DNA of 63,982 nt, the filler included, from Hausera hauseri (taxonomy: Eukaryota): NCBI GenBank assembly GCA_046269625.1. It is 12 parts of 12 records of this genome, joined end to end, with 100 filler letters (N's around TTAATTAATTAA, not from the genome) between each part and the next. Parts side by side here need not be neighbours in the genome. Positions count along the whole stretch, not along the records: positions 22,751 to 26,708 come from JBJURY010857856.1; 11 more parts are not named here. One strand, 5' to 3'. Each line of letters starts with the position of its first letter. Positions within the stretch are counted from its first letter, which is position 1. A program made the position numbers and the translations under genes. The notes below the pieces were generated by a model. It did no database searches and was not told the origin of the DNA. It worked only from the letters and a program-made list of their open reading frames with translations. Below, piece after piece: positions 419-49,100 of this stretch.

Positions 419-557
419 TGAATGTTGGTGCGAAAGAGATGAAACAAAGAAAAGACTTGCATGTTTAGTATATTTAAACTGTTATATAATAAAACTTTTA
501 TGTGTTTCGTGTTCTACAATAAAAACAAGTCACTGATTACAAGCTTTATTACAACAA

Positions 558-857: not shown

Positions 858-879
858 TTTACATTCATCTGATATTCAA

Positions 880-1102: not shown

Positions 1103-1106
1103 TACT

Positions 1107-4735: not shown

Positions 4736-5760
4736 TGAGCATTTATTTGGTACTTGATAGTAACATATTATCAGAACATGACAACAACAACAATACCGCT
4801 GAACAGTTTACCATGGCGTTGGAACAGCAGCTCAACTTACTCCAGGGAGCCTGGGAGGTGGCTTTGGCGTAATGCACATTTACACTTTCACCAATAACAA
4901 TATGTGAGAACATTTGAATATTCTATACTCTACTAAGACAATCTCCTGCATTTAGTCGATTGCAGTTTGTCCGAGACTTTAATGGAATATATTACGTTAG
5001 CAACTACAAGCAGAAAAATTTCCCGGTTTATGTTTGTCATTTAAACAATCTATTGGTGCCAAACACAAACATCCGATTGAATTGCATGCATGGGGCTTTC
5101 AATCTGTCAATGTGCACTCGACAGGTCTACGGCTCGGTGGACATAGTATAATTAGTGAAAAAATCAACATCATTAAACCACCGATATCACGGTGAACTGG
5201 CAAAAGACTGAATCATTCTTTTATTCTCATACAACAGGAACTGGTTTTTGTGCTTAAACGGAAACAGAATTGTGCGCAACCATCAAGGTTGTAGCTAAAT
5301 TGGCTCTCGAGACATTTCAATTAAACTCTGGTGGTCGTATTTCATTTACATTGCATGATAATGTTATATATTTTGCCTTTGATAAACTATTTGCACTGGA
5401 TCTGGGTATTAAGAAATGAGAATTCGGTCAAACCGGCGGCGGACGGCCCATTGTTGATAAACACAAACCACGTTTCTACGAAGCATTTTATCGAATCAAT
5501 ATTTTAATAGATCTAACCGAACGCGTATATGTTGGCGGAGACAGTAAACAACTATTCGTTTCTATTGGGCTGGATTCGGACACGTACAAAACATCGGGCG
5601 AAACTGTTCACGTAAATATCATCTGGCCCATGTATTTATCGTTGCCTCACAATGTTGTGCGCAGTATTTCCCTGTATATAGTAGACGAATTTTGGAAACC
5701 CATTAAATTTCTGTTTGGGGCCAAGACACATTTTATGCAACAAATCGTCGTCGTCGTCGA
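4735..5760 (+). pseudogene. Polinton minor capsid (penton)-like gene, copy 1
   Basis: N-term MSIYLVLDSN..NTAEQFTMALEQQLNL..AWEVAL; C-term DLTERVYVGGDSKQL..PMYLSL..SISLYIVDE..KPIKF; contains stops and frameshifts. Confidence 0.6.
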
Positions 5761-5802
5761 TAATAAGCTAAATGCATAATCATAATCATCATCATCGAGA
5801 TC

Positions 5803-6870
5803 ATGAATATTTACATAGTGTTGCCGAGCAACAGTTGTCCGACTACTCGTTCGAACAATTCACCAGTGATTACGTTGTAGATTAGAACAATCCTTTGGAT
5901 TTATCTAGAAAATATAAGGTTGCACTGACGGAATTTTACTTTCCCTACGCACCGGTGACATTGAAAGTTAGTACGAAAATGAAGTATAACAAGACTGTTC
6001 GTGAAACCAAAACACATTCTTGACCTCTCACACTTACTAACAATAAAATAACAGTTGGAGAATCGGCCATTTGCACGACCGAAGCAATTTACGGTTCACA
6101 CGGAAAAATTGGTGTTCTTATTTAAGGGAAAAACTTAAATTTTATGGCAGATTTTGAAATTACTGTCACCTTTGAGTTCTCTGACAAGGCGCAGAAATTT
6201 GGACTCAAAAATACAGAGTACAAAGGTGAACGTATTAAAAGTGAATATGCAGTTGCTCCAAGATTAAGTCCCGTATATTATCAGGCAATGGTGAAATTTA
6301 CCTATACAGCAGAAAGAGTGTCAACGTCATACGTATCGATTGGCGACAATGTTTATTGCAAATCTGTAGCACATCTCTGTCAGCACTTTTCTTTAAATCA
6401 AAACAACAAGGAGATATTTAAAGTTTTCGAGTCAGACGCAAATGGGTACATTAAATTTGAACTGGAAAAAGATATTGTCGACATTTCATTGGGCAAAGCT
6501 TTGGCCATAGTATAGGGTTTTGAAAAACAGCGATTTGAGACATCATATACGAAAACAGGGGCGGAGGTGGCAAATGTTGCAACACTTAAACCCAAACTGA
6601 AAGCGAAATTAAGTCAAATGTACATTTACGTGAATGTCACCGAACCGATTTGGGTCGGTAGAGTACGTGTACCGCTACTCCGTGCAATTTATACGGAAAG
6701 CAGCAATTATACTGACGGTGACTATGTCACTGTCAAGCTCTATAATCCAATGTACCTATCTGTGGCAACTACATCTATAAATAATGTTGAAGTGAATATC
6801 CGATGTGACGCGGGCTACCTTATTGAATATCTGTACAGTACCACAACCAGTCAAACTCTTAATTTCGACG
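5803..6870 (+). pseudogene. Polinton minor capsid (penton)-like gene, copy 2
   Basis: N-term MNIYIVLPSNSCP..PLDLSRKYKVALTEFYFPY; C-term MYIYVNVTEPIWVGRVRVPLLRAI..NPMYLSV..INNVEVNIR. Confidence 0.7.
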
Positions 6871-6878
6871 AATCCAAC

Positions 6879-7037
6879 ATGATTGATTCTGAAAAAGTTT
6901 CCATTTACAGTAAACGCAGCAAGGCTGTGAACTGCCACATTTTGTTGGAAAACAGTATGGCTCTGGATAGTTGCGTACATTGGCACGTTTAGCATTCCTA
7001 GCGTTAAAGCGTATTGGAGCTGTGGAAGCAAAAGCAC
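6879..7037 (+). pseudogene. Polinton core/membrane-lytic protein-like fragment
   Basis: Alternative frame reads ELPHFVGKQYGSG*LRTLARLAFLALKRIG: a QxGxG motif followed by an amphipathic basic helix; truncated by the contig end. Confidence 0.45.
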
Positions 7038-7137
7038 NNNNNNNNNNNNNNNNNNNNNNNNNNNNNNNNNNNNNNNNNNNNTTAATTAATTAANNNNNNN
7101 NNNNNNNNNNNNNNNNNNNNNNNNNNNNNNNNNNNNN
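7038..7137. other. artificial contig spacer (first of 11)
   Basis: 44 N + TTAATTAATTAA (stops in all six frames) + 44 N. Identical spacers at 11462-11561, 16841-16940, 22651-22750, 26709-26808, 31642-31741, 36027-36126, 44311-44410, 50577-50676, 54722-54821, 59846-59945. Confidence 0.98.
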
Positions 7138-9800
7138 GTTCGGCTTAGCAATCAGCTTCTTGGCTCGCTTCCACTTACATACTAAATCCATGCTGATCCT
7201 ATTTCGGATGTTCTCTATCGTCTTGTCAAAAAACGCTGTTGTTGTAGAGCTTAAATTGATTTTTCTCAAAATCGTTCTTGGTGTTGCCCACAGCTGCATA
7301 TTCAGATCTTTATATAGTATCGGCCACATGGACTAGCTGAACTGCAGGGCCCGATAAATCTTTATGATTCTAAGTCCGTTCTTTATTGCTTGCTGGAGAA
7401 TGATTTAGTGGGCTACATACCTCTCCCTGTTCTCTAGATGGCAGAGCAGCTTTCTATGTTTTCCATTAGGTAGCGGCTTGCTCTCAGGGAGGAAAGCAGT
7501 TGTTCATGCCTTGCATGGATATTATGTGGATATTCAATATCCACTTCTAGTATGTAGCGCGTATTTCCGTTGGGATCTACATCTTGTATTGCTAAGTCTT
7601 TCGGATGATCCACCCATTTAAAGTCGTCATAAGGCAATGAGGCGCCCATTGCCCATCCATAGATGTTATTGGCATCCAAGTAGGTAATATAGGAGGATGC
7701 CTTGGATGGATCATATTCGGCCATATACTTGTTATTAGCCTCACTATACCACTGAATGGTCTGGCATATTCCACCTCTAATGTCTCTGTCCATGATGAGG
7801 AACATATCTTAATCTTTCAAGATCTGCAGCCTAATACCCGTATATCGCAACATTGCTGCCCAACTCATTCCTGGAACTGTGAAGAAATGAGCTGGATCCA
7901 ACTTGTGGCTTGCAAGTGTTACATCACGGAAGTTTTCAAAGACATCTGCCAGTAGCACCACGTCCGTCTTAAGGTATACATCACTGTATTCTCCTATTTT
8001 CCTACATTTGAATGCTTCCCAGTCATTTTGGGCATGTTGGTAATCTGAGCATACTGTAAATATCTTTCTTGGCCGCCAAAGCTGTTTTATCGAGTGTTTC
8101 CCATGAGGTGATGTAATCATAGGGAAACACTCCTTTCCTTTTGACTATATCAAACATATTAGGAACGAACCGCTTTGTCTCCTTTGGTTCTTCTGCTGGG
8201 AGGTTCTACACGAGGCTATCAAGTGAAGAAGACATGAATTGAAAACTGTCTACGAAACGAAGTCAGACTTTTCCAACATGCTTCGTAAATATGACATATT
8301 TCTCCTCACTGTTGGGGATCACGTCGATATTACTCTTAATGTTTCCTAGTTCCCAAACAATGAAATGGGAATCATATCCACTGAGGTTGTGGAATACTAC
8401 AAGCAGAAATGTCACTGTTCTGCAAAGTAGATAGCAATTGTTGCATGCTGTGTATCAATATGTGCCTGTAAAATGGCACTGATCGCTGACATTATGATTC
8501 TTCTTAGTGAAAGATTAAGAGATCAAGTGGCATGTTGCTGCCTCGCGCCATTCCTGCTCCTTCTTCGACATGCTCATTTTATCCAAATCCTTGTGTTGCT
8601 GTAATATAACTTCAATCCTTTGAGCCATATTTTCTAATCGCTTTATAAAATGTGCGTCTGCATTTGGACCCCTGAATAGAAATGGATCCTTGTCCAGTCC
8701 TATTTAATACATACAACATGACGAGAGTTCGTGATATTGATATACCGTTGTGCTGTTTTGCTGCAGATTGGGGTTGCAACTCTGAACTGGACTTAAGATT
8801 GCTTCAAAGTTGCAATAAATGACTATTGGAACCTTCAGCTTCTTTTCAAACTCTTTAAATTCTATACGGTCCTCTTTGAAAAATTCTGTCCTGATACAAT
8901 AATTGTTGTTTCAGTACATCTGGTATTTCTCAAGCTTTTTCATAGGTACATCGCCACCGAAATGGGATAAACATCTTCTACAAATTTTAATTCTTCCATG
9001 ATTTGTTGTTATTTAAGATCTTACTAGACGCTAAAAAGTTTTTAATCCATCGTCTAACAGGAACAGATCCATGTGATCTTACAATTCAGCGTCACATATT
9101 TGTAGCGGATAGAATTTATTTTCCTCCAATCCAAAGTTATTGATGGATATATTGTTACGTCGCCAGAATTTTTTGACTTCATCTAAGGATGGGGGGAATA
9201 TAATACATTGGAAGTCATAATTGTGCAGTAGATCATTATACAACCAAACTCGACATGCATACTTTTGATAGAATGAAATATTTGAAACACATTGTATCAT
9301 CATTATGGACATAGATGCATGCTTTTTTCTTAACGATCCATTCCGGAAGCTGTATATAAAAGCTGTCTCGCATGGGGGAGTACTTGTGCACAAACACAAG
9401 AAATCTCTTTATGTTGGCCAAAGTCTATCCACTCTTTTTGTTCTCCTTAGATTCACGTATTGATGCTTTCTAATACTGGCCTATTTTTAGTCTTGAAGGC
9501 CCAGTTTGATTTCTTGCCATCGACATTGGTAAACGTGGCCTCTAACTTAAGTTGACTTTAAGAACCTTGAGCTCCACCATATTATCTTGGAGAATCCCAT
9601 GGTTTCATCCTTTGTATATTCCAGAAAGTCATGAAGCGTAGTTTGATTAGTTTACAGATATGATATCTGCGGACTTTGCTCTTCAATGCTGCGATATCAA
9701 CTGTTTTCTGCCTTTGACTTTTTGGTGCAGCTTTGGAATATCTGCAGTTGCACGTTTTAATCCTGTGTTGCTGCTCCATTCATTCAGTGTGCTGCACTGA
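7138..9800 (-). pseudogene. second, distinct Polinton-type DNA polymerase B (heavily disrupted)
   Basis: YSPMR..YIQLPEWI..KKACI.V.NDD..CF, YLKTDVVLLADVFENFR..LDPAHFFTVPGMSWAAML, IRGGI..ANNKYM..YDP..YLDANNIYGWAM, ILEVDIEYP, K.IENIRNR. Confidence 0.9.
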
Positions 9801-10425
9801 AGTGTGAGAAACTGGCTGTTCAGCATCTGAAACTGGCTGTGCTGCTGCAACAGCAGAGTTATGTTGCTTGAAGTCTATTAAATGAACCTTGTGATCCAAT
9901 AAAACTGTGAAAAGCGGTTTGATTTCACCGATTGACTGCCCGGCTCTCTGATTCTTTCTTATTACACTGTAGCTATCTTCGTCAAAAAAATTAATTTGAT
10001 ACTTTCCAGCAGGAAGGCGACTGTGCTCATTATGGAAAGTAACCTAAAGCTGTTGATAAATCTATGAAAAAGTACAAATAACAAACCTGATATCTATTTG
10101 AATCAGTGTCACGACCAGCAAGAACCAGTTGGCCATTTAATTCAGCATACAAATTAATACTCTAAAGAAGTTTCATTCTAAAACAAAGTATTAAAATTGT
10201 ACCGAAGAAACACCATCACAAGCCAATTTCACTTCTGTAATAAAAACTGTTTCACTTGACAATAAAGCTTCACTGGTAGAAAAGTTTTAGAATCAATAGT
10301 GGGATTTTTACAATGTGTTACCGAAACGACTGAATGTGCATAACCAGGCGGTTTAGCAGGACTGATATGGAGCTGCTCTGAATATCTAATAGGACACGAG
10401 CCGCAACCACAACCGCGGCACCACA

Positions 10426-11461
10426 TCACTCACCCCCCCGTGGCAGAAGAGGAGCTATGTAAAGTAAAAGGAATGATAAAGATAATATGGATGAAAACAA
10501 TGAATCGCAACAAGAAATAATGTTAGGTTCCTATTCAGTTTTAGTACGCGTATGGATGAAAGCAATAAATGACAACAAGGAATAATGTTTGGTTCTTATT
10601 CAGTTTTAATATGGGTCAGGCGTTGTGTGCCATCAAATAATTTTTCTCTGCTGTACGTATTAAATGTCACTCTGCGTACCTTACTCAATAGATTTGTGCT
10701 GAGTTGTAGTTTGACGTTTTGTGATGAAAAATTTTTGAGATTACGTAATCCAGTGTGTGGTGTTGTTCGTGATGAAATCGACAGAGGTGACGAAGAGAAT
10801 GTGTCAAGCAAAGGCGATAATACAATTGAAGGGGATGAAACACTGGATGTAGGCAAAGAATGCGAAGAAAATGGTGAGCATGATGAAAGAAAGGGAAAGA
10901 GTAAAGGAGAAAGTGATGATGATTAAGTGTGATCGAACAGTGATTGCCGCAACGGCGCAAAATCGTTTAGAAAATCGATAGGAGTGGGAGTTGAGTTGGA
11001 TTGGCGGTGGAATTAGCATCCGGATTGTCATCAATGAAGAAAGCGGGCTTCAGATTCGAAATGTGGACGTTGTAAGGTTTATCTTGGTGTAAAACGGTAG
11101 CTGTGTGAGATGAAAGATTCAGCAGTTTATACGAGCCAACATATTGAGGTCTAAAACCTGAAGGCGATTGATTCTTCAATCACACAAACTTGGCGGAGTA
11201 TAAATCCTTCGGAATATAGAATTTGTTGTTGTTAAAAAGGCGACAGAATGAATCTGAGCTGACCTCGACAAAGTGAGATGGTGCCGCATGAATGTTTTCG
11301 TCTGCAGGGTTGCCGTTGAGATCAGAAAGCTCAAATAAGGCCCGAATTAAAGTCCCAAAGAGTGCTTCAGCTGGAGCACAACCGATAGTGGAAGGTGTGT
11401 TGCGCCAACCTAGTAGAACAAATGGTAGAATGGACGTCCAATTACGATGAGTGTCAGCCAA
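10426..11461 (-). mobile_element. Ty3/Gypsy 3' fragment: integrase C-terminus, S/P/T-rich tail, PPT; LTR begins TGTGGTGCC at 10425
   Basis: WTSILPFVLLGWRNTP..PAEALFG, PQYVGSYKL..VHISNLKPAF, KVRRVTF..GTQRL, then GGGGGGGTGAGTGA|TGTGG; same family as 38186-43203 and 55675-59760. Confidence 0.85.
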
Positions 11462-24476: not shown

Positions 24477-25790
24477 TTACTGGTCCAGACTCAACGGGAC
24501 ATGAACGAATTTGCCGGTGGTTCGAGATTTATAACGGATGGACTCCGGTTCATATACCTCTTCGTCGATGACTACGGTTTCATCGACCTGTATTTTCCTT
24601 TTCCTGGCACATATCGATGGTATTGGTGCTATTCGCACCCTATCGGGAGCCGCGTCAGTTAGGATTATTTCATCATTCCATTTGAGTTGACGATATATTG
24701 ATTGATAGCATTGCACCAGAGCGGTGCTGCGTAACGGAAAGCCCTTTGAATCGTAGAATTTGCGGGCTAATTCCTTATAAGTGTTGTTCGATAGTTGATA
24801 CTTCCGAATAACCTCCTCGTGATGTAATACATCACGAACTCCGGCTATTCGGCGCATTGGGCACTTGAGATGATTCACAATCATCTCGACCACATCGGCC
24901 CCGATGACAATCTTATCCGTTAATATTTCTGCTACTTTGTGATATACGTCCGGAGGGTCCATTTGATTGGTAATATTTATCTCTGCCAATCCGGTTATAT
25001 GACTATCAAAGTTGTTTATGCGTTGGCGAGGAGATACGATACTGTAGAATAGGGTGTTCCCCTGCACGTCAATTATTGATATTTCGATTGGCTGGAGTTG
25101 GTTCCACTGGTCATAGGCCAGATTGACGGCGGCTATGACCAGATCTTTGTCGGAGAACTGCTGGATACGTCTGTAGGGAATGGTTCTGTATTTGACGTAA
25201 TCAGGTTCTGGGAGATCGAAACATCTTCCGTTAGGTACACTTGGTTGGAATTTCTCTTTCTTTATTACTTCGATGGCTAATATGAGACGATTGGTGAGGG
25301 ATCGTAATTTCAATAAGTTTTCTTGCACAAAGGAATAGTCAAATGCCAATCCGTGTTCTGAATTCATATTAATGAGATCGCCTTTTATTGACGTTTTTCT
25401 GGCTGTTGTCTTGATGTGGAATTGGCCGAGTATACAATAAATGTTTATGGAGTGGTATCGCTCGGGAAGGATCATTATGTCTGTTAGATATAGCGATGTG
25501 GCTTTTGTTATTTGCAGTAGAGCTAAGGATCTGTTGGCCATGCTATATCCCTTTAAGTTATTTGGTATTTGCGATGTCTGTGGATAATTCAGACTGATCG
25601 TATGGTCGTTTTGTACTGTATAATATTGATTAGCCGGATTGGCGTTAATTATATGATTTTTCGCATTTCCATACCAGTGTTTAGACCTGGTAATTGATTG
25701 AACTTGATGAGAGGTTGAAGACGACACTGTAAATAGAAATGTCAATTGCAAGTTAATGTAGGTATCTACACACATCACAACGGTTATCAA
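24477..25790 (-). CDS. retroelement cargo region with a degenerate REX4/ISG20-like DEDDh exonuclease domain
   Basis: EISIIDVQGNTLFYSIVSPRQRINNFDSHITGL..VAEILTDKIVIG..VRDV (~24700-25150) matches the REX4-type scaffold, but the acidic catalytic residues are not evident. Same frame as 25908-26699. Confidence 0.6.
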   Translation of the reverse strand: MITVVMCVDTYINLQLTFLFTVSSSTSHQVQSITRSKHWYGNAKNHIINANPANQYYTVQNDHTISLNYPQTSQIPNNLKGYSMANRSLALLQITKATSLYLTDIMILPERYHSINIYCILGQFHIKTTARKTSIKGDLINMNSEHGLAFDYSFVQENLLKLRSLTNRLILAIEVIKKEKFQPSVPNGRCFDLPEPDYVKYRTIPYRRIQQFSDKDLVIAAVNLAYDQWNQLQPIEISIIDVQGNTLFYSIVSPRQRINNFDSHITGLAEINITNQMDPPDVYHKVAEILTDKIVIGADVVEMIVNHLKCPMRRIAGVRDVLHHEEVIRKYQLSNNTYKELARKFYDSKGFPLRSTALVQCYQSIYRQLKWNDEIILTDAAPDRVRIAPIPSICARKRKIQVDETVVIDEEVYEPESIRYKSRTTGKFVHVPLSLDQ

Positions 25791-25907
25791 ACATACAGTG
25801 GTAATCGTTGTAGTATTAGGGTTTAATTTATTTCTATAGATAACCTGATGACCTGTGGTTATCTTTATTAGAAGGGTTGCGTTGATAGCAATCCCTAAAC
25901 TCCACCG

Positions 25908-26708
25908 TCAGCTGGGACTAGTTGTGGCTAACGGATTCGTTAGCTCACGTAAGTTAATTCGTACCCAGTTTTGTCTTCTCTTGCGTCGTTGGCGTTGTAT
26001 CACCTTAACTAACATTACTGCTACTATCACTATTGCTATAGGGGTTATTGAACCTATTATAATCATTTCTAAACGGGAATGCTTATATTCTGTTCGCGAT
26101 GGTTCTTTAGTTGTCTTATTTTTAACTATCTTTAATCTGTACGGTGATTCTACTCTATTACCTTTTGTGATTGCAGACATTATTTTTGTGGAAGTTACTT
26201 TGTTATAGTCGTCCAGCAACTGCAAAATGACCGTATATTTCGTATCAGTCTCCAAGGCTGCACACGGCACTATCAGATCATCAGGGGTTATTATTCCTTT
26301 TGCTACTATAGTATCTTGCTTTTTACAAATAAATTTAATTTTTACGAAGTCAAGATCTGGTTTAACAGAGATTATTAGTGCAGTGGGAGCTGCTATAATG
26401 GTTACGTTATCCCAGATGGAGCGTTTTTGGCGATAGTAAGAAGCATAAGGTTTAATTAGAACAGTCATTTCTTTTTTATCGGCTGGGAATTGCACAAGTG
26501 GCGTCGTGATCCTCTCTTGTATATCATCATACTCTTTTTGGTTCTTATATCGTATAAACATCGTCGGTCCTTTTCTATGCCTTTTATTCTTGAGCTTTCC
26601 ATGCTCTTTCCGTGACAGAGAATATCTTACTTCGTATATTTTACCTCTTGTTACGTTACAGCAAACTTGTTGTTGTTCATCCGTTAATTCACATTTCAAT
26701 AGTCTTTG
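25908..26708 (-). CDS. FN3-like type I membrane protein (5' partial)
   Basis: CELTDEQQQVCCNVTRGKIYEV and PCAALETDTKYTVIL repeats, TM MIIIGSITPIAIVIVAVMLVKVI, stop-transfer QRQRRKRR; homologous to 44585-45780. Confidence 0.65.
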   Translation of the reverse strand, partial: QRLLKCELTDEQQQVCCNVTRGKIYEVRYSLSRKEHGKLKNKRHRKGPTMFIRYKNQKEYDDIQERITTPLVQFPADKKEMTVLIKPYASYYRQKRSIWDNVTIIAAPTALIISVKPDLDFVKIKFICKKQDTIVAKGIITPDDLIVPCAALETDTKYTVILQLLDDYNKVTSTKIMSAITKGNRVESPYRLKIVKNKTTKEPSRTEYKHSRLEMIIIGSITPIAIVIVAVMLVKVIQRQRRKRRQNWVRINLRELTNPLATTSPS

Positions 26709-34606: not shown

Positions 34607-35774
34607 TATTGGGTTGTTAAAAAGTTTCCGGCCCTTGCAAAAAACTCAAATTTTATGCGGATAAATTTATTTAAAACACGAACAATTATTCCTCAAAATA
34701 GATACTATCATTATCTACAACTTTCTGCCTTGGACTCCTTTGAATCGAAGACCTCTTGACACGCTAACCCCACTTCATCAAATGAATCGAATCGGCGACT
34801 CTTTAGAAAGTGTGGCATTAAGCAGAAAGGCTGTAGTCTGATGGAGCGCAATCTGGGCTATATGTTGGATGCGGAAGAACCTCGACGCCGTCCAACTCTT
34901 CGAACTTGTGCTTAGTCTTAGTGGCTGTGTAAGGCTTGGCGTTGTCTTGCTGAAACAAAGCGCGTTTTCGGTTGACTAATGCCGTGTACTTTTCCTTCAG
35001 CTTGTCGTAAACGCTGTCCAGTTGTTGAATGTAGAGATCGGCATTCATGGTGTGACCGTTCGAAACCAACTCTGAATGCAAGACTTCTTCAATGTTCCAC
35101 CAGAGGCACAAAATGACTTTCTTGCCAAATCGATCTTGCTTTGGAGTTGAGGGCGTTGTTTGACCTTTAAAAATCCATTGCTTGTCTCGATTGTTGCTGA
35201 CCAGATACACACACTTCTCGTCAAAGTAACAATCCGCTTCCAAAACTGATAATCCAATGGATTGTTGAGCAACCGACGGAAATTTCAACTCGTTTGGCAT
35301 CTTCAGCTAGGGTAAGTTCGTGCAGATCTTGTCGTGGAGTGCTTGACGAAGGTTCAATGTCCAATTCGGTTTGCAAATCTCGATCATCATACTTTGTCGG
35401 TCGACCTGGGTGTGGCTGGTCTTCCAATGTCTCAACGTCGTTTCTGAATTTGGCAAACCATTCCTTACCTGTAGATCGGCCAATTGTTCTCTTTCCATGG
35501 GCTTCATGGATCTTTTCGGCGCTTTCAGACGCATGCGTGCCCAATTTCCATTGAAAATGCAATAATAAGCGTTTTTGCTCTCGACTCAACTCCATTCTAA
35601 ACAACTATAGACGAATAATATAGTAGATCAATAATAATAACAATAGTAATATATCAGAATACGCGCAAGAAAACGGGCTTTCCGATTAAGCCAAAATCAT
35701 AAAAAATGGTTTGAAAATTAAGAACTTAATTTCATAAGTTTGCAAGTGCCGGAAACTTTTTTAAAAACCTAATA
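34607..35774 (-). mobile_element. mariner element with both TIRs and a disrupted DD34D transposase
   Basis: TIRs TATTGGGTTGTTAAAAAGTTTCCGGC..TTGCAAA and its inverse; HTH (WFAKFR..LEDQPHPGRP), KKVILCLWW, FQQDNAKPY, HPTYSPDCAPSDY. Confidence 0.93.
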
Positions 35775-38185: not shown

Positions 38186-41100
38186 GCTGGGACCCTAAAT
38201 CCTTTTTCACTTCATATCTACCTCCATATACACTTTTGCATCCGTCGTGGCATGAATTCATTGCCAACCATAGACACAATGGATAAATTCACCACGAAAC
38301 CAAAGCCCGTTATACTACTCCAAAATTCACTATTAGTACTCCTCCTGCTAATAACACATCAATTCCTACTTCTTCTGCTCCTTTCTTTCACTGCACAAAA
38401 TTCTTTGTCGACAACAAAGGTTTCAGCAAACCTGGTTGCAATTTCATCAACTCTGCTTACAAGCAAACAACGTAACCGATTCTTTAACGAAAGTATACAA
38501 CCTCCTTTTCTTACTCTCTAACACTATCAAACACGAATTCATAACATCATCCAAATCTTCGAACTGCGTCATCCGTATTCACAACTCTTCAACGCCGTTC
38601 TTATGATCTCAGATCCCTCAATGGACATTATCATACAACACTTCTTTTATGACATCGCCATAGGTACACAACGACCATCAGACTCCTTACTCAGTTCTTT
38701 GGCACACCTGCAAACCCTCAGCGTTACAAAAGAACATAATCCAGAACTGCTTCGTCATTACCTTCTCAACGCGTTGCCCATCCAAATTCGGGCCCCACTT
38801 ACCGTCATGGAGAACTCCACGGCTCTTGAAAAATGGCTGAATTATCCGGCAAGACACACAATGTTTTGAACTTAAACTCTCCATTAGTCGTTTCGGCGGC
38901 AGTTGCTGCAAATGGTATCCAAAGTAACAACGAAACGATAGAACAACAACCAAATTAGCTACGTGCTGAAAATACAGTACTGCACGCAACAATTAACAAT
39001 ATTAATAATAAATTAAATCAGCTTTTGTTGTCCCGCGGAAGAGATTTTGACGCTGATCGCACAAATTCTGTACCTAGAAACCGGTCACCATTACCCGCGC
39101 AATCGTCTGTCTACTATTATCACAGCAAATTCAATGAAAATGTCAAAAATGCTGCCTAGTGTGAAGATTTTACAATAAAAGCTTCTTTTCGGACACCGTT
39201 GTTTGCATTTACCACGCAAAGTTTAAAAATCAAGCTCACAAATGCATCCCAGGCTGCACTTTCAAACCCGATACGAACGACGGACGTGCTACCTTTCCTT
39301 CTAATAGCCGTCCTAGTTCACTTAAAAAAAACTAAGTTCGCCGCCAGAATTCACGGCAAACTCTGGCAAAGGCACTACTTTACTTTCTGAACGCCGACAC
39401 GTCTCTTTTGCTGTCTTTACTCTAAAGGCTCCAATCACCGCTCCTACAACGCAATCCGTTGACTTCCTCATTGATACAGGTGCAGCGATTTTTTTATTAC
39501 CACAAACTTTTCCTGTACCAAATTCACCATTCAGAATTAAGCCCTTATACACCGCTTCAGGTCAATCGCTGCACATTTCTGGCATGGCTAAACTATCTTT
39601 TATCTTACCAAAGTTTCCTTCACCTTTCCACTGGATATTCACAGCTGCTAACGTCCAGGCGGCAATTCTAGGGTCCGATTTTCTATCACATTATAATTTA
39701 CTGGTTGACTGCAGTCAACGATATCTGAGGAGCGGCATCACTGGCAGCGTTAATGAGCATATCAATAGCATTTCGACTACTGCTCAGTCTATAGAGACGC
39801 GGAGATCAATTTTGAGAAAACCAAAAACTACTTTGAATTTTCGTAATATTTCACTCCGTAAATTTTTAAATAATAATATTGAAATCCAGTCGAGGTTCGA
39901 TGTCTCCAATTGTGGTACTGTCACCAACGTTAATTTACTTGACGAAATCACTTCATTCAACACCATTTTCAATTCCACCATCTTACACCAAATACTACTT
40001 GACTGCACATCACCAAACAATTCACAAATTGCATCCGCTACTACTCAAACTGTTTCATCATCATCACCGAATCTCTCACAGTTGCCTATAACTTTACAGC
40101 AATTCGTCAACACATCATGTCCACGAATACTCAAAAAATATCGTACGTTTACTCCTGCAAACAGCACTGTACATCACATAATTACACAGCATCAACGACC
40201 AATATGCCAAAAGGTACGACCATTGTTACCTCGTCGTAGGCAGGCCGTAGAAGCCAAATTTCTTGAACTTGAACACTCCGGCATTGTACGCCATTCCAAA
40301 TCTCCTTGGTCGTCAACTTTACACATTGTACAAAAAAGGACGACACTTTTAGACCATGTGGTGACTACCGCCAGTTAAACAACTTGACGATGATGGATGC
40401 GTACCCCTTACCACTCATCATGGACATGTTACATCGCCTTAATTAAACTACCATTTATTCGACCATCGATTTGGCCAAAGCATACCACCAAATACCTGTG
40501 GCACCCGAAGACATAGAAAAGATTGCTGTCACTACTCCTTTTGGCCTTTACGAGTACCCGTTTATGTCATTCGGTTTGCGAAATGCCGTGCAGACCTTTC
40601 AGCGACATATCGATTTGATTCTCTCAGATTTTCCGTTCGCACACCCTTACATTGATGATATTCTGATCGTTTCGTCTTTAGACAAAACAACATGAGGAAC
40701 ATCTTCGCGCAATATTCCAACGCCTTAACCACTATAATCTCCAAGTCAATTTCGAAAAATGTCATTTTTTCAAAAAGCGCATCAATTTTCTGGGCCACAT
40801 TATTTCACTAGACGACCACTCTCCTCAACTAAACCGAGTTGAAGCCCTTAAGAATATCCAGTTACCACGTATGACCACTGAAATGCGCAATTTCCTTGGT
40901 ACTCTAGACTTTGTACATAAATATGTACCATATTGTTCTGAACTGATAGAACTATTTGCACACTTAAGTTGCGGCAAAAAACTTCAGACAATTCAGTGGA
41001 CACCTGCATTGGTTGATAAGTTTGATAAGCTACGCGAAGGAATTAAGACCGTCGACGTTCTCGCTTTCCCCAAGCCTGACGCGGAACTTATCCTTACCAC

Positions 41101-43203
41101 AGACGCTTCAGCCACTGCGGTAGGTGCTGTGATTCACCAAATCCACAAAGGAGAAAACCAACCGCTAGAATTTTTCTCTCGCAAGTTAACATCCCCTGAA
41201 ACTAGATATTCGACGTTCGATCGAGATTTATTGGCCATCGTTCTCGCTTTAAAGCATTTGTCCAACCTACTTGTCCCTCGCAATTTTACCATACCAACCG
41301 ATCACAAACCCTTACTTAACATCATGGTTATGAAACATTCTTCCATACGCCAAGAACGACAGATATCATATTTATCGACATTTAACTTCGACATAAAACA
41401 CATCAATGGGGTTAATAATTTGGTTGCCGATTTTTTATCCAGGTCGGTTAGTTCGATTAATTTTTCACCAATCTTTACGCAAGCACAACTTCAACAAAAC
41501 CAGCCACCTCAGGACATGCTTAATTCTTTCAAGTTTTGCACAATTCTTGACGACATGGCATTAGATACTTCCAAACCCGGTCATTCCGTAATAATTCTTG
41601 CACTATCATTGCAAAGGCAAGCATTTAATAGTGTACATTCGCTACACTACCTTGGTGCTAAAGCCACTTTTTGTTTACTCCACAAACAAGTAATTTGGTG
41701 GTCAATGCGTTCTGATGTGCATTCATGGGTTAAGGAGTGTGTGTCTTGCCAAAAATACAAAACAACTAAGCATTTAAAGCCACCACTATTCCACTTTCCC
41801 TGCACATCGCGTTTTGAATCCGTGCATATTGACATCGTCGGACCTCTTCTTCCAGACAACAATCAATTCATTCTCACCATGATGGATTGTTCCTCGCGAT
41901 GGCCAGAAGCCATCCCTCTGCGGAGCACAAATACCGACACTATAGCTGACATTTTTATTCGTACATGGATTAGCAGGTTTGGATCACTTCGTTTCATCAT
42001 CACGCACCAGGGTCCACAGATTGAATCCAACCTGTTCAAATCCCTTGTTAACCGACTGGGCATCCATCACATACATACTACGTCTTAACATCCCCAATTG
42101 AATGGCCTGCTAGAACGCTTCCACCGAACATCGAAAACGCCACTAAGAATCTTTGCAGAGTCCAACACTAGTTGGACGAATCTTCTTCCGTTTGTTCTGC
42201 TCGGCTGGCGGAACATTCCGTCTACTTCTACAGGATGCTCACCTACTGAAGCCTCATTCGGAGCTCCTATACAATCATTATTTGAACTTACTGTCCTGGA
42301 TGACACTCCCACAGATGAGACGATACGGGCAGCGCAAAATCACTTTGTTACGGTCAGCAAAGATTCGTTCTGAAGGTTACTCCATAAAGACAAAACATAT
42401 TTACCCGAAGATTTGTATTCGGCAAAATTCGCATGGCTAAAGAATCAAACGCCGTGCGTTTTTCAGCCGCGGTATCTGGGGCCCTATAAATTGGTACAAT
42501 TGCATTCACATAACGCCATTATTTCCAAAGACGGCAATAAACTTACAATACATATTACCAACTTAAAGCCCGCCTTCTTCGTCGATGACACTTCACCAAT
42601 CGATACGTCAACCCCTTTGCTCACTCCTACACTTCTTATTATTCCTATTTCTATCGCTACATCTGTTCCACCTCCTCCTTCTGCTTCTAGTTCTTCTTCA
42701 TCATATTCCACGCTTTCTCCTTCTATTCCTATCTGTCTTCCTATCTCTACCACTACCTCTGTTTCATCTACTTCTACTCTTTCGCCTAAAACTTTTCCAA
42801 TTTCCACGCCAACTTTTGTCTCTCCTCCTTCACCCACCACTGCACCTTTTTTCAGTCCATTGTCTTCTAACTCTCTTTCGAACACCTTCAACCATCTATC
42901 TTTAACAATCTCTGTTCCTCCTTCACCTTATTCTTCTCTTCATTCTGATTCGCCTTTGCACGACACAACACTTACAACAAAATCTGACAATATTTTTCCC
43001 TAGCTTCAACCTCTGCAAGCAAACAGACTGCATAAATACAAAATACGCAGAGTCACATTTAGCATGTATAGCAGGGGAAAATCAGTAGAAGGCACCCAAC
43101 GTCTTGTTCACACTATGACCAGCTGACACAGACACTTTTTCGTTTAGCGATTTTTTCTTTCCATCTTTTTTGATCTTTATAGCTTTTATTTTGCCACGGG
43201 GGG
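38186..43203 (+). mobile_element. near full-length decayed Ty3/Gypsy internal region (gag-PR-RT-RH-IN, S/P/T tail, PPT)
   Basis: Gag with CIYHAKF..AHKCIPGC knuckle, [58 protein letters not shown]; PPT CCACGGGGGG at 43194-43203 with no LTR after it. Confidence 0.93.
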
Positions 43204-44584
43204 TATTATTTATCATGTTAATTGAAGGGGCGAAATCCAGACGTGGCTCTGTTTGTTTCTCCACTAAAAACAAATCAAATGTGCATAACCTAGCTCCGAA
43301 CGAATTTCTCGCGATTAACATTGTCTTTTTATTTTAGATTCAATTACCAAAAACATTGAGATTTGTGGAATTTGAGAACAAAATAAATGATCTGAAATTT
43401 CCGTTATTCTGTAACTGTGCTTGTAATAAATGAGTCGACTATGTAAAATCCTCGTAAAGATTGAATTATGATTAAACACAGAATCTTTGAAATTGAAAAG
43501 AAAATAAATTGTTCAAAATTGGGTATGAAGATTCAAATTCGCACTATAAACTTTTTATTATTAAAGCAAAATTTTTTAAAACATTTAAAAGTAGGTCACA
43601 ACAAATGCCGTTTAAAAAGGGCCAACGAATTCGGCAACATAAACAAGTATAACAAATGGAAAAATTACGTTGGAGAAACATGGAAAGCGAATTAGTAGCG
43701 TGTCCAATAACTTTTAACAACCATTTGAAATTTGATCAGCGGAGATTGTTTTTAAATTAAAAAGGAAAAATTCTTCAAGGATCACTTACACTAAATCGTC
43801 AAGCGATACTGCTGTTTTTGGCTAAATTTTGATAGATAACACAAGACAACCCAACGGCAATTTCCTTTGTATAATCATTACGATCTGTATCATACAGTCA
43901 AACTTCCAAACTTCTACCATTTGCTTTACACAAACAACTTCAACATTCTTTGTCAAAACATTCAGGAAATATTTTATCAATTGATTATGTATAGTAACAT
44001 CCCATTTATCCTCCGTGTTTCAAACTATACACACATCGTTTCATTAAAGATCCTGCATTTACAACTATCTCTGAATATATCCAATTTAATTTGCAAGGGG
44101 TATTCTCTTTTACGAAATTATCTTTAATACAATTTACGTAAATCGGTAATTATTATAATACAATAAACATGGCCTATCTCAACAATATTTAACGAAAAAA
44201 GATTCTGTTTGTCAATGCCAATCAATTATCACATTCTCCATTTTTTTATCGTAGGGTCTTCCATTTCCCTGCAGCCGGATCGTATACACTGACTACGTAA
44301 TCCACTGGCTNNNNNNNNNNNNNNNNNNNNNNNNNNNNNNNNNNNNNNNNNNNNTTAATTAATTAANNNNNNNNNNNNNNNNNNNNNNNNNNNNNNNNNN
44401 NNNNNNNNNNGTGCTGCTGTAAGAAATTATCGATGTCGTAATTGGAAATGAGTGCTGGATTCTACGCCTTCTTGGCCATACTTACTCTGTTGGAATAAAA
44501 ATAAACGTTAATCCTAAGACAGATCATCGTTTTGAAGCAAAACACTTTTTTTGTCTGATGATAGGGTAAACCGATTTGTAGTTG

Positions 44585-46150
44585 TTAGGTTATGCTGTCA
44601 TAAAGTCCGTCTCGGTGTTCGTTTACCCATTTATCTCCTTTCTGAATTTTACAGCGCTTATTACAATTTTTGGAAAGTATAAAAATCGTCGCTGTTATTA
44701 TGACAAGAACGAAAATTGAGAAACTGAATTTAGCTATTATCAGTAAGTTATTTGGCTCAATAGAACTTTTCGTAGTAAGCACATTTTGGATACTAGGATC
44801 TTTATATCGCTTTATTTCAATTTCGTTTCCAAGAGTTTGTACTGTAAAAGTTTTAGGGTTTTTACCCTTTGCGGTGATTTTGACTATATAGTCATGTTGC
44901 GGTCGTAATGACCTGCATTCAGTTTCCTGACTCTTCTTTCTCAGGATCACAACTTGGTTGGTGTGCAGGGTGCGGCATTCAATTTTGACGTCTTGATTTA
45001 ACGTCTCTTTGGCGAAAAATAGAATTTTATCGCTTTTCGCCAAAATCTTAACCGGTATGCTTCCCGGCATTTCATCTGAAGTGACTATCGTAGTAGTGAG
45101 GTTGTACTCGGGACAGTGGACGGTCTTCCCGTAGTGGTTGGAAAGGGAAGCTTCCATATTCCGTTTTTTGGGCGATATCCCCGTAAATAGGTACTTTGCT
45201 CTCCGGGCTACGTATTATACAAATCGAATTGCAGCTGATACTCTTGTCCTAGTTGTAGTACACAGCACACAGTAGATCGGCGTCTGGGCAAATAACAGTA
45301 TTCCGGAATAGGAATTGAAGCATTTAATGGTGTAAATCGGACAGAAATTTGTCTGTCTCCAGGCAGTTCCACCTTAGTTTTGATTCGAATACATTGGTTT
45401 TTTAAGTCCTTTGAAATCCCAATAATGTTATAGTCTAAGAGTCTTTTAAATGGGTCAGTGCTTCGGATTATTTCGTCCGTCTTGGCTTGATTTGCGTCTT
45501 TCCGTAGAGGCATTCTTAGTTAGAGTTTCGTAATTATGTAGGCTTGAGCTCCAAACTGATTGTAATAAAACATTTGAAATCCGTACCCGTAGGCTTGTCC
45601 AAAATCCAAATTACAACATCTTTTGTGATGTCTGTACGGAAAATCGCACGTTCTCATCTTGTTTCCGGTTACAAATATTATTTGAAAATTTACGTGGCTC
45701 TGAATAGGTTTGCTTGCTTAAAACCATGCACATGGTTTGCTCCAATCCATATCGTGTACTCTAAGTGAGTGTAAGTTTTGGATATCCCTTTGTTTTTTCG
45801 CATATTGTAATTTTTCGATCTGAGTGATCGGTACATACGAAGCAATTAACGATAAGGCCACGACTATTTGCACATACGATATTGGTCTAGTCACTATCGA
45901 CGACGCTTTCTTTTCTTTATTTGTTTTGTTTTGACGCAAATTATAGCGTTTGTCTGGTCTTATTTCCGTATTAACTACTCTCTGGATTGATACGACCTCT
46001 TCCTTGCCGTTTTTATTTATATAAACTGTGGTTGGTGTAACCTTGGCAACTTCAAAAGGTCCTCTGCCTGTTCTAGTAAGTTTGAGAGATGTGCCTTTCT
46101 TCGCCACTGTATATTGTACGTAAACCCAGTTTCCTGGTTCTAAGTCGTGT
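44585..46150 (-). pseudogene. env-position extension of Gypsy Pol: signal-like segment, 3 FN3-like repeats, TM helix
   Basis: In frame after the integrase SH3-like end (GPFEV..VVSIQRV..RYNLR): VQIVVALSLIASYV; CDFPYRHHKRCCNLDFGQAY; CYLPRRRSTVCCVLQLGQEY; after a frameshift CRSLRPQHDYIVKI and TM FSFSIFVLVIITATIFIL. Confidence 0.7.
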
Positions 46151-46153
46151 GGT

Positions 46154-49100
46154 TTAGCCTTCTTTAGATAGTTCCTTGGCTATTTCCCAACATTTGTGCA
46201 ATCTCGATTGTAATACTTCGACAAAGTTTTGCTCTAAATCTTCCGTTCTTGTTGTGTATGGAATTAATCCTAAGTCCATAGGCAATACAGCTTCTCTGCC
46301 ATACATCATGAAAAATGGAGTGAATCCTGTCGTGGAATGTGGAGTATTATTAATTGCAAACTGTGTACCTTCTAAGAACTCATCCCAATCTTTCTGGTCC
46401 TTTGCGACTACAGTCGATAAGATTCTTATAACGGTTGCGTTCATTCGTTCAACCATTCCATTACATTGGGGATGATAAGCTGCAGTAGTAAGTCGTTCAC
46501 TTTCAAAAATTTTGGTAATTTTGTCGAACAATTCACTCGTGAAGTTTCTTTCTCTGTCTGTCAAGATTTGTTCGGGTGGCCCATATCTGAAAATGATTTT
46601 TTGGACTACCGCTTCGGCCAAGGTCTCGGCCTTTTGGTCTAATAACGCTATAAGTTCGACGAAATAAGTCAATCGGTCTACACAGGTTAAAATATATTTG
46701 TTATTCTTGTGGGTTGTAGGCAATGGTCCTACAATATCCATAGACATTGCTTGCATTGGTCTATCGGACACGTCGATAGGCTTAAGTTCGGCGATGTAAC
46801 TTTTTACTTTTATTTGTTTGGTTGCGCATACTTCGCAAGCATTTACCCAATTTTTCACATCAATGTAAATGCTTGGCCAATAATATTTATTCAAGATTCT
46901 TTCTAGGGTCTTTTTTCACGACATGTGTCCGGCTAAATACGAATCGTGTTCGGCCATTAGTACTTCTGAATGCAATCCTTTTGGTATGACTATCAATTTT
47001 CGTCCTTTTCGTTCGTAGTATAACACATTTTCGTGGTTCAAATCTCCAGCGACGCAGTATTTGTGATCATATCGTCGTAGATGTTTCCGTAACTGATGAC
47101 CTTTGGTGTTACCTTGGTATCAACGTACTCGATAATCTGTTGTATAACCTTGTCTTTTCTCTGTTCGACAGCAATCTTCAATGCATTATCCAGTGTAAGA
47201 GTTCGTTGTCTTTCTACTAAGTCTTCAAGGTGGGCTTTTATCATTACCGTAACTGCGCTTGTTTTGGTTTTAAGCCTCGATAATGCGTCGGCATTGACAT
47301 GTTTATTTCCGGGTTTGTATTGGAATTCAATATTGTAACGTGAGATTTCCTCAATCCATCTGTTAAGTCTACAGGTTGGATTATTCGCCCTACCCTCTAA
47401 GGTCGTCACTGCCTTATGATCGGTAACAATTATGATCTTTTGTCCATGGACGTACACGTTAAAATGTCGCAGCGCTTCTTTTACCGCTTGTGTTTCTAAC
47501 TCCGTAATGGAATAATTCTTCTCTGCTTTCTTTAAGGAACGTCCTCCGTATGCAGTTGGGTGTTCTAATTCATTGTCTTCTCGTTTTTGGTCCAGTTCAT
47601 ATCCGATACCTTCCTTACTTGTGTCTGTTTTGATTATGAACGGTAGGTTAAAGTCGGGTTTCCGTAGAACAGGTTCACTAGTTAGAATCTTTTTCATTTC
47701 GTCAAAAACTTTTTGTTATATATCGGTCCATTTCCATTTAATCCCTTTTTTGAGTAAGCGGTATAAAGGTGCGTTTATCTGGTACGTAGGTTGCATAATA
47801 CCCACATAGCCCCAACCAGTGTCTTAATTCCTTTTGATTTTGAGGTTCCATACAATCCAATATCTTACTCAATAATGATTTATCCGGTTTCGATCCTCCT
47901 TCTCCAACTATATGTCCAAGATACGATACAGCATTCTGAGCCCGTTTGCATTTCTTGGGATTCAATTTTAATCCAGCCTGCTTCAGTCTCATGAGTGTAC
48001 CTTCAATATCCTTTAGGTGATCTTCTTCCGTTTTCGACGCAATCATAACGTCGTCCAAGTAAGAGAATGCATGTTCCAATCTCATTAGCATCTTATTCAT
48101 CATGCGCGTAAAAATGGCTGGTCCGGTAGTTATTCCAAATGGCATAACATTAAATTTGTATATCCTGTCGTGTGTCTCAAATGCCGTTTTGTAGCGATCT
48201 TCCTCCTCTATCTCTACTTGCCAATATCCAGATTGTAAATCGAGCGTGGTAAACCATTTAGATCCCGAAAGTTTGTCCAAAGCTTCCTTTACCGATGGTA
48301 ACGAAAAAGAGTCCTTCATCATAAGTGTATTTAATGCTCGATAGTCGATACAAAATCGGTTCTTACTGGTACCTTTCTTCTTAACCATAAGTATAGGCGA
48401 GTACCAAGATCGGTAGCTTGGTCTTATTATGTCGGCCTTTAGTATTCGTTCAACCTCTTTGGTTATCTCTGGCCTTAACGAATGTGGAGGAGGATACAAT
48501 TTCGGCATCTTTTGATCCTCAAGATCTATTTCCTCGTTGGAACCAGGCTTTTTCTTAAGCGGAATCGTAAGTCTTAGGGCTCTGGCTCGGCCAATGTCTT
48601 CTTCGTTTCTCGCGATAATTGAGCTGTAGTGGCAAAGTATTTTATAAAATCGACAATATGATTCCGGTGAAATTTTAGTCTCAACATGGAGTGGAAATTC
48701 GGCACCCTTATACGGTTTCTCTTGTATAGTGATTGACGATACTCGGTACGCGTGTCCCAACGTGGTATTGGCATACAGTTTGATCGGAGTTGGTGCGTTA
48801 TTTGCTATTCTGATTGGCATGCGGCCTGTTAATACTCTTGTCAAAACCTTACTGAGCACAATATTTAGATTAAGCGATTCTTTCGGCTCGAAATATACTG
48901 GCTGATCGTCATCCTGACGTCTTTGGGCATATAGGAGTACTTCCGTTCTGGGCGGTATAGTTTCCTCCACTGGAATCCACACTTCTCCAAATTTTCGGTC
49001 TTTAGTGGTTTTAACTCCTTTTATTGGGCCTAGTTCTATCAACTTGCCGTCATTGAAATAGATTGCTATATTAGGTAGTAGTCTCAATAAGTCACACCCC

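Follow-up and report, generated by a model that had tools for sequence, protein, structure and literature searches.

The window, a 63,982-nucleotide stretch of Hausera hauseri DNA (GenBank assembly GCA_046269625.1), consists of 12 short contigs joined by N-spacers, and parts that stand side by side are not necessarily genomic neighbours. The repeat described here lies on the contig at 22751–26708 (JBJURY010857856.1); a related sequence, element 2, lies on a separate contig at 44411–50576, and no genomic neighbourhood is implied. Features are on the minus strand unless stated otherwise. From 26708 to 24477 a single frame encodes 743 residues and a final stop, with a TGA at 25908–25910 as the sole internal stop and no frameshift, in agreement with the sequence-only reading, which had described a shared frame of at least 740 codons with a lone TGA. 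Upstream of the TGA, ORF1 (25911–26708) has lost its 5′ part, its open frame reaching the contig edge at 26708; it appears to encode a single-pass membrane protein with a possibly FN3-like ectodomain, a TM segment and a basic cytoplasmic tail. ORF2 (24477–25907; 476 codons) continues in the same frame, and is 58% identical across 411 residues to P0002, the sole ORF2 homologue found, which is a singleton on a 1561-bp contig. Coding constraint was evident from 17 of 30 listed variants being synonymous, against 28% expected. Behind ORF2 follows a non-coding part of the repeat (23668–24476), judged from the depth step and sequence to be a probable 3′ LTR with an unfixed inner boundary, and containing tandem units of 51–54 nt (24270–24393).

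A CA at 23668 closes the repeat, in step with a change in depth between bins 23543–23674 and 23675–23806; only this one repeat end is present, and inspection by eye found no clear PPT. Beyond it, on the plus strand, lies a single-copy exon of a host aromatic amino acid hydroxylase (23274–23503; Biopterin_H match, E = 1e-29, and depth), to which the repeat is antisense, ending 165 nt beyond the exon's donor. An opposite-strand TH exon had been proposed for this place; the match upholds this at the family level, without distinguishing TH from PAH/TPH. On this stretch we found 3093 contigs of run X1, mostly 80–95% alike (348, 554, 1070 and 1121 by identity class), whose summed depth was 273–11030 over the repeat versus 1–7 over the host exon, with a sharp step between the two. 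The ORF1/ORF2 sequence thus belongs to a high-copy repeat. No Rfam family matched 22751–26708 at E ≤ 1.

The in-frame stop sits in the context UGA-CGG (25905–25910), and the sequence-only reading had left it to be decided whether the TGA was conserved or private. We therefore examined a variant listing for 25896–25926, which leaves variants below 4% unlisted and in which X1 is possibly from the same source as the window itself. The listing, complete above that cut-off, held 17 variant rows across this interval and none at 25906–25910 (158, 29, 3 and 3 contigs of runs X1, X2, X3 and X4), and since no other letter is listed at the stop in four runs while the flanks on both sides vary, we concluded that the TGA is not a lesion peculiar to the window copy. 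Taken by itself, a variant at 25902 would put another stop two codons past the TGA; its depth is 140 of 14531 in X1 and 4.4 of 147.7 in X2, and X3 has it paired with a change at 25903. A depth peak at the stop was dropped as evidence, because the 107-base query was centred on the stop. On a contrary view, a nonsense mutation private to this copy would interrupt a continuous ORF, or the region would belong to a host gene that is spliced and present once. This view could appeal to a contig without pol and to neighbouring elements in the window that are full of disabling stops, but it is at odds with the uniform stop, with the copy number and depth given above, and with 743 codons free of any further stop or frameshift; we strongly disfavour it and regard it as very improbable.

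At 44588–49534 element 2 carries a decayed Ty3/gypsy pol (PR-RT-RH-IN), whose nearest solved RT is that of Ty3 (E about 1e-46), continuing into a signal-like segment, a pair of Cys-motif repeats and a TM; this whole stretch is broken by stops and frameshifts. Kinship between element 2 and ORF1 is indicated by their common layout and, as the best homology, a 20-residue motif: across the whole window, read in six frames, C-x9-CC-x4-G-x2-Y (26634–26693 in ORF1) has three matches, placed at 26693, 45648 and 45297, in line with the spacing reported earlier for ORF1 and the element 2 repeats. Against shuffles the Cys-motif segments gave z values of 5.4 and 4.8, for segments picked after being seen. 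A second claimed similarity, that of the membrane-proximal repeat to 44820–45060, is visible by eye, yet shuffled sequences scored as well (z −0.14 and −0.81; BLASTP E = 32) and was rejected as statistical evidence. Of the mobile-element origin proposed previously, the high copy number and sharp depth step lend support to the general claim, whereas pol itself is absent from the ORF1/ORF2 contig, which stops inside ORF1, and its linkage is drawn from element 2 only; the repeat is likely a Ty3/gypsy-type LTR retrotransposon. No longer relatives with flanking DNA were found in viral or metagenome contigs, in scans that need exact short peptides and whose blanks are therefore weak, and no nuclease ORF was matched in element 2 by tblastn, its contig ending before such an ORF could appear.

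ORF1 contains one clear TM segment, as had been claimed, at residues 216–234 (26007–26063; KD 2.85, Hessa sum −1.5), followed by RQRRKRR. Nine of the 10 Atlas clusters listed for ORF1 were fn3, with scores of 0.84–0.88 that lie under the 0.9 mark, while Pfam and PDB sequence searches for FN3 were blank; the earlier suggestion of an FN3-like ectodomain has gained support from these clusters as a lead only. No ORF1 homologues were found among longer or similar-length proteins, and the 266 visible residues, which lack the N-terminal part, had no Pfam fusogen match. Elsewhere in the window, on another contig, there is a match to the viral fusion protein family PF24664.

Type II readthrough motifs consist of UGA followed by CGG or CUA together with a 3′ structure, and their stem-loop starts about 8 nt past the stop (PMC3542737, PMC13517186). 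Behind the ORF1 stop, MFE folding predicted a forked stem-loop (25820–25906) whose main stem begins 6 nt past the stop and whose inner hairpin has 8 bp (25864–25838). This fold had a z of −2.86 (1 of 200 shuffles was as low), and the interval 25898–25809 gave −4.85, ranking second among 74 intervals. Of the stops of ORFs of at least 100 codons in the window, 2 of 76 had a type I or type II leaky context, namely that of ORF1 and that of the TM ORF of element 2, compared with a background rate of 59 in 6945. The element 2 stop, a TAA, is followed by CAA-CTA (44584–44579; feature at 44582–44587), which fits CARYYA and thus a type I context; its frame stays open for 40 codons, and no stem-loop was found behind it (fold z −0.5), a structure that type I readthrough does not require (PMC13517186). 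Past the ORF1 stop the frame is open for 64 codons until the conserved part, for which the chance is about 1.5%. Given also the variant listing, the UGA-CGG stop appears conserved and is probably leaky. Two other explanations of the stop were set aside: reassignment of TGA to Trp or Sec was rejected because element 2 carries TAA at the matching place, and a start at ORF2 Met45 was disfavoured, as it has no same-place counterpart in P0002 and leaves the stop context without a role.

The region 3′ of the stop can also be read in terms of splicing. At 25727–25756 there is an acceptor-like site with a branch-like TTAAC, a T-rich tract and CAG, which leaves unproven the earlier statement that the frame has no introns; an acceptor-like site also lies 100 nt past the element 2 stop (44487–44512). 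With such a site past each stop, ORF2 would be reachable by splicing without readthrough. It may thus be a separate accessory gene, expressed from a subgenomic mRNA that joins a distant 5′ donor to the 25727 acceptor and yielding a soluble, possibly nuclear cupin-pseudonuclease that binds element RNA for export, 3′-end protection or anti-silencing, with the leaky stop serving mainly to shield unspliced RNA from NMD. We consider this possible, if on the whole unlikely. In both elements the best-scoring YAG site (of 87 and of 119) lies 3′ of the stop, but the ad hoc score was devised after the sites had been seen, the margin is 1 point at 25727 (4 points in element 2), 105 of 2979 YAG sites window-wide score as high as 25727, and hydrophobic codons also yield T-rich tracts. 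Similarity to P0002 starts at the 25727 acceptor, with a P0002 Met right at the boundary; in the window copy, however, no in-frame ATG occurs from the acceptor to ORF2 codon 123, so that the start would have to come from an upstream exon. LTR-element ORF3s typically come from spliced messages (PMC5408684), and a basic cluster near the C-terminus, RKRK at 24594–24605, is conserved as KKRR in P0002 and could be a nuclear-localisation or RNA-binding patch, but such splicing does not by itself need ORF1 and ORF2 to share one open frame.

A donor-like GTGAG in phase 1 (25943–25948), which matters to this reading only, would allow a short intron from 25948 to 25727 that removes the stop in frame, with alternative splicing yielding a membrane-anchored fusion that lacks the hydrophobic linker. 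Donor and acceptor agree in phase, and across the 2.2 kb of ORF sequence GTRAG occurs just twice, this donor included. The reading would nevertheless leave unexplained the stem-loop and the presence of leaky contexts in both elements, and the joint was seen in no DNA contig, where only copies lacking the intron could reveal it. We hold this short intron to be quite improbable.

Turning to the product of ORF2, its first 60 codons past the stop align poorly with the P0002 N-terminus and contain a stretch of moderate hydrophobicity (KD 1.77, Hessa sum +3.8) which, if membrane-crossing, would leave the distal domains on the non-cytosolic side. Between the stop and the nuclease-like part, structure prediction suggested, with low confidence, a cupin or double-stranded beta-helix-like domain (ORF2 residues 87–225; 25233–25649) that the sequence-only reading did not have. 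The model matched cupins with Z scores of 6.2–8.2 (rmsd 2.5–6.6, 79–119 residues aligned), where a Z of 7–8 is also common without a clear match; nearly all of the best 50 fold matches listed were cupin-fold chains, and Foldseek agreed. Both AlphaFold models were poor (mean pLDDT 30 and 33, with about 45–56 in the core of the cupin part), and neither Pfam nor PDB sequence searches supported the cupin-like part. A dUTPase as the middle domain was unsupported by Pfam and by the fold lists.

The distal part (24678–25148) resembles DEDDh exonucleases of the ISG20/REX4/DnaQ type in profile and sequence comparisons, as anticipated by the REX4/ISG20 resemblance noted earlier. It matched ISG20L2 at E = 0.005 across 68 columns and Atlas RNase_T clusters at 0.90, and of the records matched at E ≤ 10, 6 of 6 from phages and 8 of 11 from plasmids were annotated as exo- or endonucleases. 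Alignment by hhalign to five phage and plasmid templates gave 95.8%, with 0.35% for a reversed control, figures that are partly circular in that the templates were chosen by similarity. The support is confined to the N-terminal half, and Pfam PF00929 itself was unmatched. At Exo I, LDTET aligned to AVNLA in both ORF2 and P0002, and D-x-E occurred in no register, which bears out the loss of both Exo I acids claimed before; Exo II and Exo III aligned poorly, and H-x4-D is absent from the C-terminal part of both proteins. Judging by these residues, the domain is not an active DEDDh member and may work like pseudonucleases. No exonuclease appeared among the listed fold matches of the ORF2 models, but one domain filled those lists, and this is no evidence against the fold.

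Taken together, we propose that ORF1 and ORF2 form an accessory gene in the 3′ part of a Ty3/gypsy-type LTR element with a high copy number, in which UGA-CGG and the stem-loop would direct programmed readthrough from ORF1 into ORF2, a proposal that we consider evenly poised between right and wrong. Most ribosomes would stop and give a short form, which would cross the membrane once, with FN3-like domains outside and a short basic tail, while a few percent would read on to give a long form whose tail carries the cupin-like domain and the DEDDh-like domain that lacks the catalytic acids. If the analogy with Exuperantia, Egalitarian and Maelstrom holds, the latter domain would bind rather than cut RNA. 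Made in a constant, low proportion relative to the short form, the long form might then keep element RNA or RNP at the membrane, to serve the assembly or the trafficking of particles. Unspliced RNA could also escape NMD with the help of readthrough, despite about 2.2 kb 3′ of the stop; readthrough below 1% can be enough to inhibit NMD (PMC9661723). As for the membrane-tethered fusion envisaged in the sequence-only reading, the TM segment and the in-frame continuation stand, but the tether itself, like the RNA binding and anti-silencing suggested there, is conjectural, a spliced soluble form being a live rival.

Several known systems share parts of this arrangement. In the bdelloid LTR elements Juno and Vesta (Rodriguez, Kenefick, and Arkhipova, 2017; PMC5408684), as in our repeat, a DEDD-superfamily domain occupies the env position, behind pol; for our repeat, we infer this placement from element 2. 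The bdelloid precedent invoked earlier therefore holds for a DEDD exonuclease in LTR elements but is looser than implied, because the Juno/Vesta ORF3 is a stand-alone DEDDy, RNase D-like protein with invariant residues kept, described there as without TM or coiled-coil domains, whereas ORF2 is nearest the DEDDh ISG20/DnaQ type, has lost the Exo I acids, has a cupin-like domain before the nuclease-like one, and continues the frame of a TM protein, from which a putatively leaky stop divides it. VEEV, coltivirus VP9/VP9′ and the furovirus CP-extension have the same UGA-CGG hexamer and a stem-loop at similar spacing, and in these viral type II cassettes, too, a fraction of a structural protein is extended (PMC3542737, PMC13517186), but the putative site here belongs to a repeat integrated in DNA and comes where the cytoplasmic tail of a membrane protein ends. 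TMV has the type I CARYYA (PMC3542737, PMC13517186), which the element 2 context resembles even though type I is described as not found in animal viruses (PMC13517186). In SIRE1, a sirevirus with pol-env stop suppression (PMC2829016), and at the gag-pol UGA of Tca2, a lone in-frame stop likewise meters a downstream ORF; there the stops separate gag and pol or pol and env, while here the stop comes after the membrane ORF in the env position and gives access to one more accessory ORF.

An exonuclease fold with catalysis lost or dispensable is shared with Exuperantia, Egalitarian (PMC5785220), Maelstrom, EXD1 (PMC5408684) and the PXL of PML-1 (PMC13659232), in which it binds nucleic acid. In contrast to ORF2, these are soluble host proteins, none described in those sources as element-encoded or membrane-linked, and no direct sequence match of ORF2 to them was found. 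Env-carrying Ty3/gypsy errantiviruses similarly have a membrane-anchored ORF downstream of pol (PMC13524379), but ORF1 has no Pfam viral-fusion match and a seemingly FN3-like ectodomain; the main text of PMC13524379 contains no occurrence of "fibronectin", "exonuclease" or "readthrough". Neither the layout of TM ORF, leaky stop and pseudonuclease nor an element-encoded cupin-pseudonuclease was found in the literature searched, and the latter would be without precedent there even if ORF2 were expressed by splicing.

More speculatively, and in our view unlikely as a whole, an animal Ty3/gypsy lineage may have replaced its env gene with a captured FN3-type surface protein, and a readthrough-metered cupin-pseudonuclease may grip element RNA at the membrane as a matrix-like tether assembled from host components. 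RNPs could then pass from cell to cell by adhesion, without a fusogen. Distant members would keep the site with differing leaky motifs, UGA-CGG with a stem-loop or UAA-CARYYA without one. The role of non-env extra ORFs in LTR retrotransposons is an open question (PMC5408684). In the repeat described here, two types of extra-ORF cargo, one a membrane protein and the other nuclease-like and of DEDD type, are coupled through a conserved putative recoding site. The readthrough proposal would add a new retroelement readthrough position, after an env-position ORF, and possibly a CARYYA signal of type I in an animal element and an FN3-based alternative to viral envelopes. It offers a testable model in which a dead nuclease domain serves as an RNA-binding module brought to membranes at a set ratio.

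The window is joined from 12 short contigs by spacers of the form N44-TTAATTAATTAA-N44, and the feature under study lies on the contig at 22751–26708, with its ORF reaching the contig end at 26708. As the sequence-only reading had proposed, its two ORFs share one frame and are split by a lone TGA; the frame runs for 743 codons (24477–26708, minus strand), and the TGA is codon 267. ORF1 (25911–26708) encodes a single clear transmembrane (TM) segment with a basic cluster behind it, and ORF2 (24477–25907) encodes the distal protein.

The feature belongs to a repeat rather than to a host gene. The stretch was present in four public sequencing runs (X1–X4), of which X1 is possibly the source of the window itself. 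X1 contained 3093 contigs matching the stretch, 2191 of them less than 95% alike, and its summed depth, which is not equivalent to copy number, was 1–7 on the hydroxylase exon versus 273–11030 from bin 23675 onwards. This step coincides with a minus-strand CA terminus at 23668, matching the expectation for the end of an LTR. Among the 40 best-supported of 903 variant rows, which are not a random sample, 10 outside the ORFs were dropped, and 17 of the remaining 30 were synonymous (11 of 17 in ORF1 and 6 of 13 in ORF2), compared with 28% expected for random changes. We consider it likely that this repeat belongs to a Ty3/gypsy LTR element.

Element 2, a decayed Ty3/gypsy element on a separate contig (44411–50576), carries a TM ORF that had been put forward as a homologue. 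The cysteine spacing said to be common to both was borne out: across all six reading frames of the window, C-x9-CC-x4-G-x2-Y has three matches, one in ORF1 and two in element 2. The proposed membrane-proximal alignment can be drawn, yet it did not rise above shuffled sequences (z −0.14 and −0.81; BLASTP E = 32), so the homology rests on the Cys motif and the common layout. For the ORF1 ectodomain, fn3 clusters made up nine of the ten listed Atlas rows (scores 0.84–0.88), a lead suggesting that it is FN3-like. The C-terminal module of the element 2 integrase leads, with no change of frame, into a hydrophobic, signal-like segment and the Cys-motif repeats (45721–46179, minus strand), which suggests a pol–membrane-protein polyprotein rather than a separate ORF3. 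In both elements a Trp-Val pair (TGG-GTA) lies a few codons past the basic cluster of the tail (25974–25979 and 44621–44626, minus strand); the pair may act at the protein level as a motif, or it may be a weak splice donor common to both.

Among the proteins searched, ORF2 had a sole homologue, P0002; the two are 58% identical, with the similarity starting at residue 332 of the read-through frame. Pfam gave no match for the nuclease-like domain of ORF2. With a two-sequence profile, the C-terminal domain matched ISG20L2 at E = 0.005 and PolC and ISG20 at E = 0.3–0.4; it also matched phage and plasmid 3′–5′ exonucleases, and a profile–profile comparison with five of these, which is partly circular, gave 95.8% (reversed control, 0.35%). 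RNase_T clusters scored 0.90 in the Atlas. These several weak but concordant searches support the resemblance to DEDDh exonucleases noted earlier. The lack of the Exo I acids was also borne out: in ORF2 as in P0002 the Exo I motif lines up with AVNLA, so the first two catalytic acids are gone. Exo II and III were poorly aligned in the profile–profile alignment, where no H-x4-D was found. A structure model of mean pLDDT 33 gave matches to cupin/double-stranded beta-helix chains (Z up to 8.2) over ORF2 residues 87–225; we treat a cupin-like domain as a lead, not a result.

Whether the TGA is common to other copies was assessed at 25856–25962, a region covered by 158, 29, 3 and 3 contigs from X1, X2, X3 and X4, respectively, with a variant table complete at a 4% threshold. 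The 17 variant rows there span 25896 to 25926, and none falls at 25906–25910 in any of the four runs. Loose contig ends in X1, X2 and X4 start at 25906–25907; therefore, in some divergent copies the match covers the stop and is lost one or two letters later. The change at 25902, taken alone, would make a second stop (~1% in X1, 3% in X2); in X3 it is paired with an adjacent change. The stop sits in the sequence UGA-CGG. This is the type II readthrough motif, described as usually accompanied by a stem-loop beginning ~8 nt downstream (PMC3542737, PMC13517186). A forked stem-loop is predicted for the 100 nt from the stop (z −2.86, 1 of 200 shuffles), and window 25898–25809 ranked second of 74 in a sliding fold scan (z −4.85). 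RNA structure is not peculiar to the 3′ side: a good fold (z −2.89) was likewise predicted for the 100 nt preceding the stop. The strongest local fold signal of the ORFs lies at 24759–24878 (minus strand; z −5.0 and −4.2, 90-nt windows), within the nuclease-like domain and at high contig depth, and is possibly a cis-acting element. The TM ORF of element 2 ends in TAA-CAA-CTA, a type I (CARYYA) motif, with the frame open for 40 codons further. No significant RNA structure was predicted 3′ of this stop, and type I readthrough requires none, according to an excerpt of PMC13517186. Known leaky contexts were found at two of the 76 stops ending ORFs of at least 100 codons in the window, namely these two, with ~0.65 expected from the background of 59 in 6945; their weight comes from both occupying the same place in related ORFs. 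A functional role for the stop as a leaky site is likely.

Splicing is a serious rival, overlooked by the sequence-only reading. The top acceptor-like site in the repeat (25727, first of 87 YAG sites) lies 183 nt past the stop, where similarity to P0002 starts, and the top site in element 2 (first of 119) lies 100 nt past its stop. A donor-like site at 25948 is phase-matched to 25727, and the pair would define an in-frame intron across the stop; such a local splice may reach ORF2 and give a similar fusion, while a distant splice to the acceptor may give a soluble protein. Against this, the acceptor score was ad hoc and devised after the sites were seen, and 105 of 2979 YAG sites in the window score at least as high as 25727 (17 of 2979 for the element 2 score). 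A moderately hydrophobic stretch preceding the acceptor-like site may simply reflect translation of a T-rich tract, or it may weakly span the membrane as a second TM segment, in which case the distal domains would lie outside the cytosol. Readthrough and the two splices are not mutually exclusive.

By Pfam search, the window also contains mariner, Ty3/gypsy, a chuvirus-like glycoprotein and a spliced hydroxylase exon, a content suggestive of an animal source. Broken ORFs at 16941–18491 (minus strand) match the Monjiviricetes fusion glycoprotein PF24664 (E = 9e-27 and 5e-13), probably the env of another retroelement. A 518-codon ORF reaching a contig end (21091–22650, minus strand) is rich in coiled coil; its ubiquitin-like match is weak (E = 0.05), and it includes GRPRK, spotted by eye as an AT-hook-like motif. 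By eye, the decayed ORFs at 1139–7808, whose sole Pfam match is a weak Chromo, look like pieces of a Polinton/Maverick: protein-primed polymerase, integrase-chromodomain and minor capsid. Positions 34818–35604 (minus), 39326–43003 (plus) and 55404–62451 (minus) contain a decayed mariner transposase and several more Ty3/gypsy pol fragments, the latter with long Ser/Pro/Thr-rich tails past integrase.

In kind, the feature belongs with LTR-element accessory ORFs. Retroelement readthrough reportedly occurs at gag–pol in Tca2. It is described at pol–env in an excerpt on SIRE1 (PMC2829016). The bdelloid Juno and Vesta ORF3s differ from the feature in being DEDDy-type, intact and without a TM segment, as excerpted from PMC5408684. 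Neither this layout nor a membrane protein coupled to a pseudonuclease through a recoding site was found in titles and abstract starts of the full-text literature searched, mainly open-access papers.

The feature is real and mostly as first described, and the case for programmed readthrough is stronger than the one first made. In the mechanism we propose, the main product would be a short FN3-like membrane protein made by termination at the stop, and readthrough would add a longer form in small amounts, with the cupin-like and dead DEDDh domains in its tail. Low-level readthrough is described as able to block NMD (PMC9661723), and Exo domains whose catalysis is lost or dispensable are described as binding RNA in Exu and Egl (PMC5785220), Maelstrom and EXD1 (PMC5408684), and PXL (PMC13659232). 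By analogy, the dead DEDDh domain would bind the RNA of the element at a membrane; to the entire model, membrane tethering and RNA binding included, we give an even chance.
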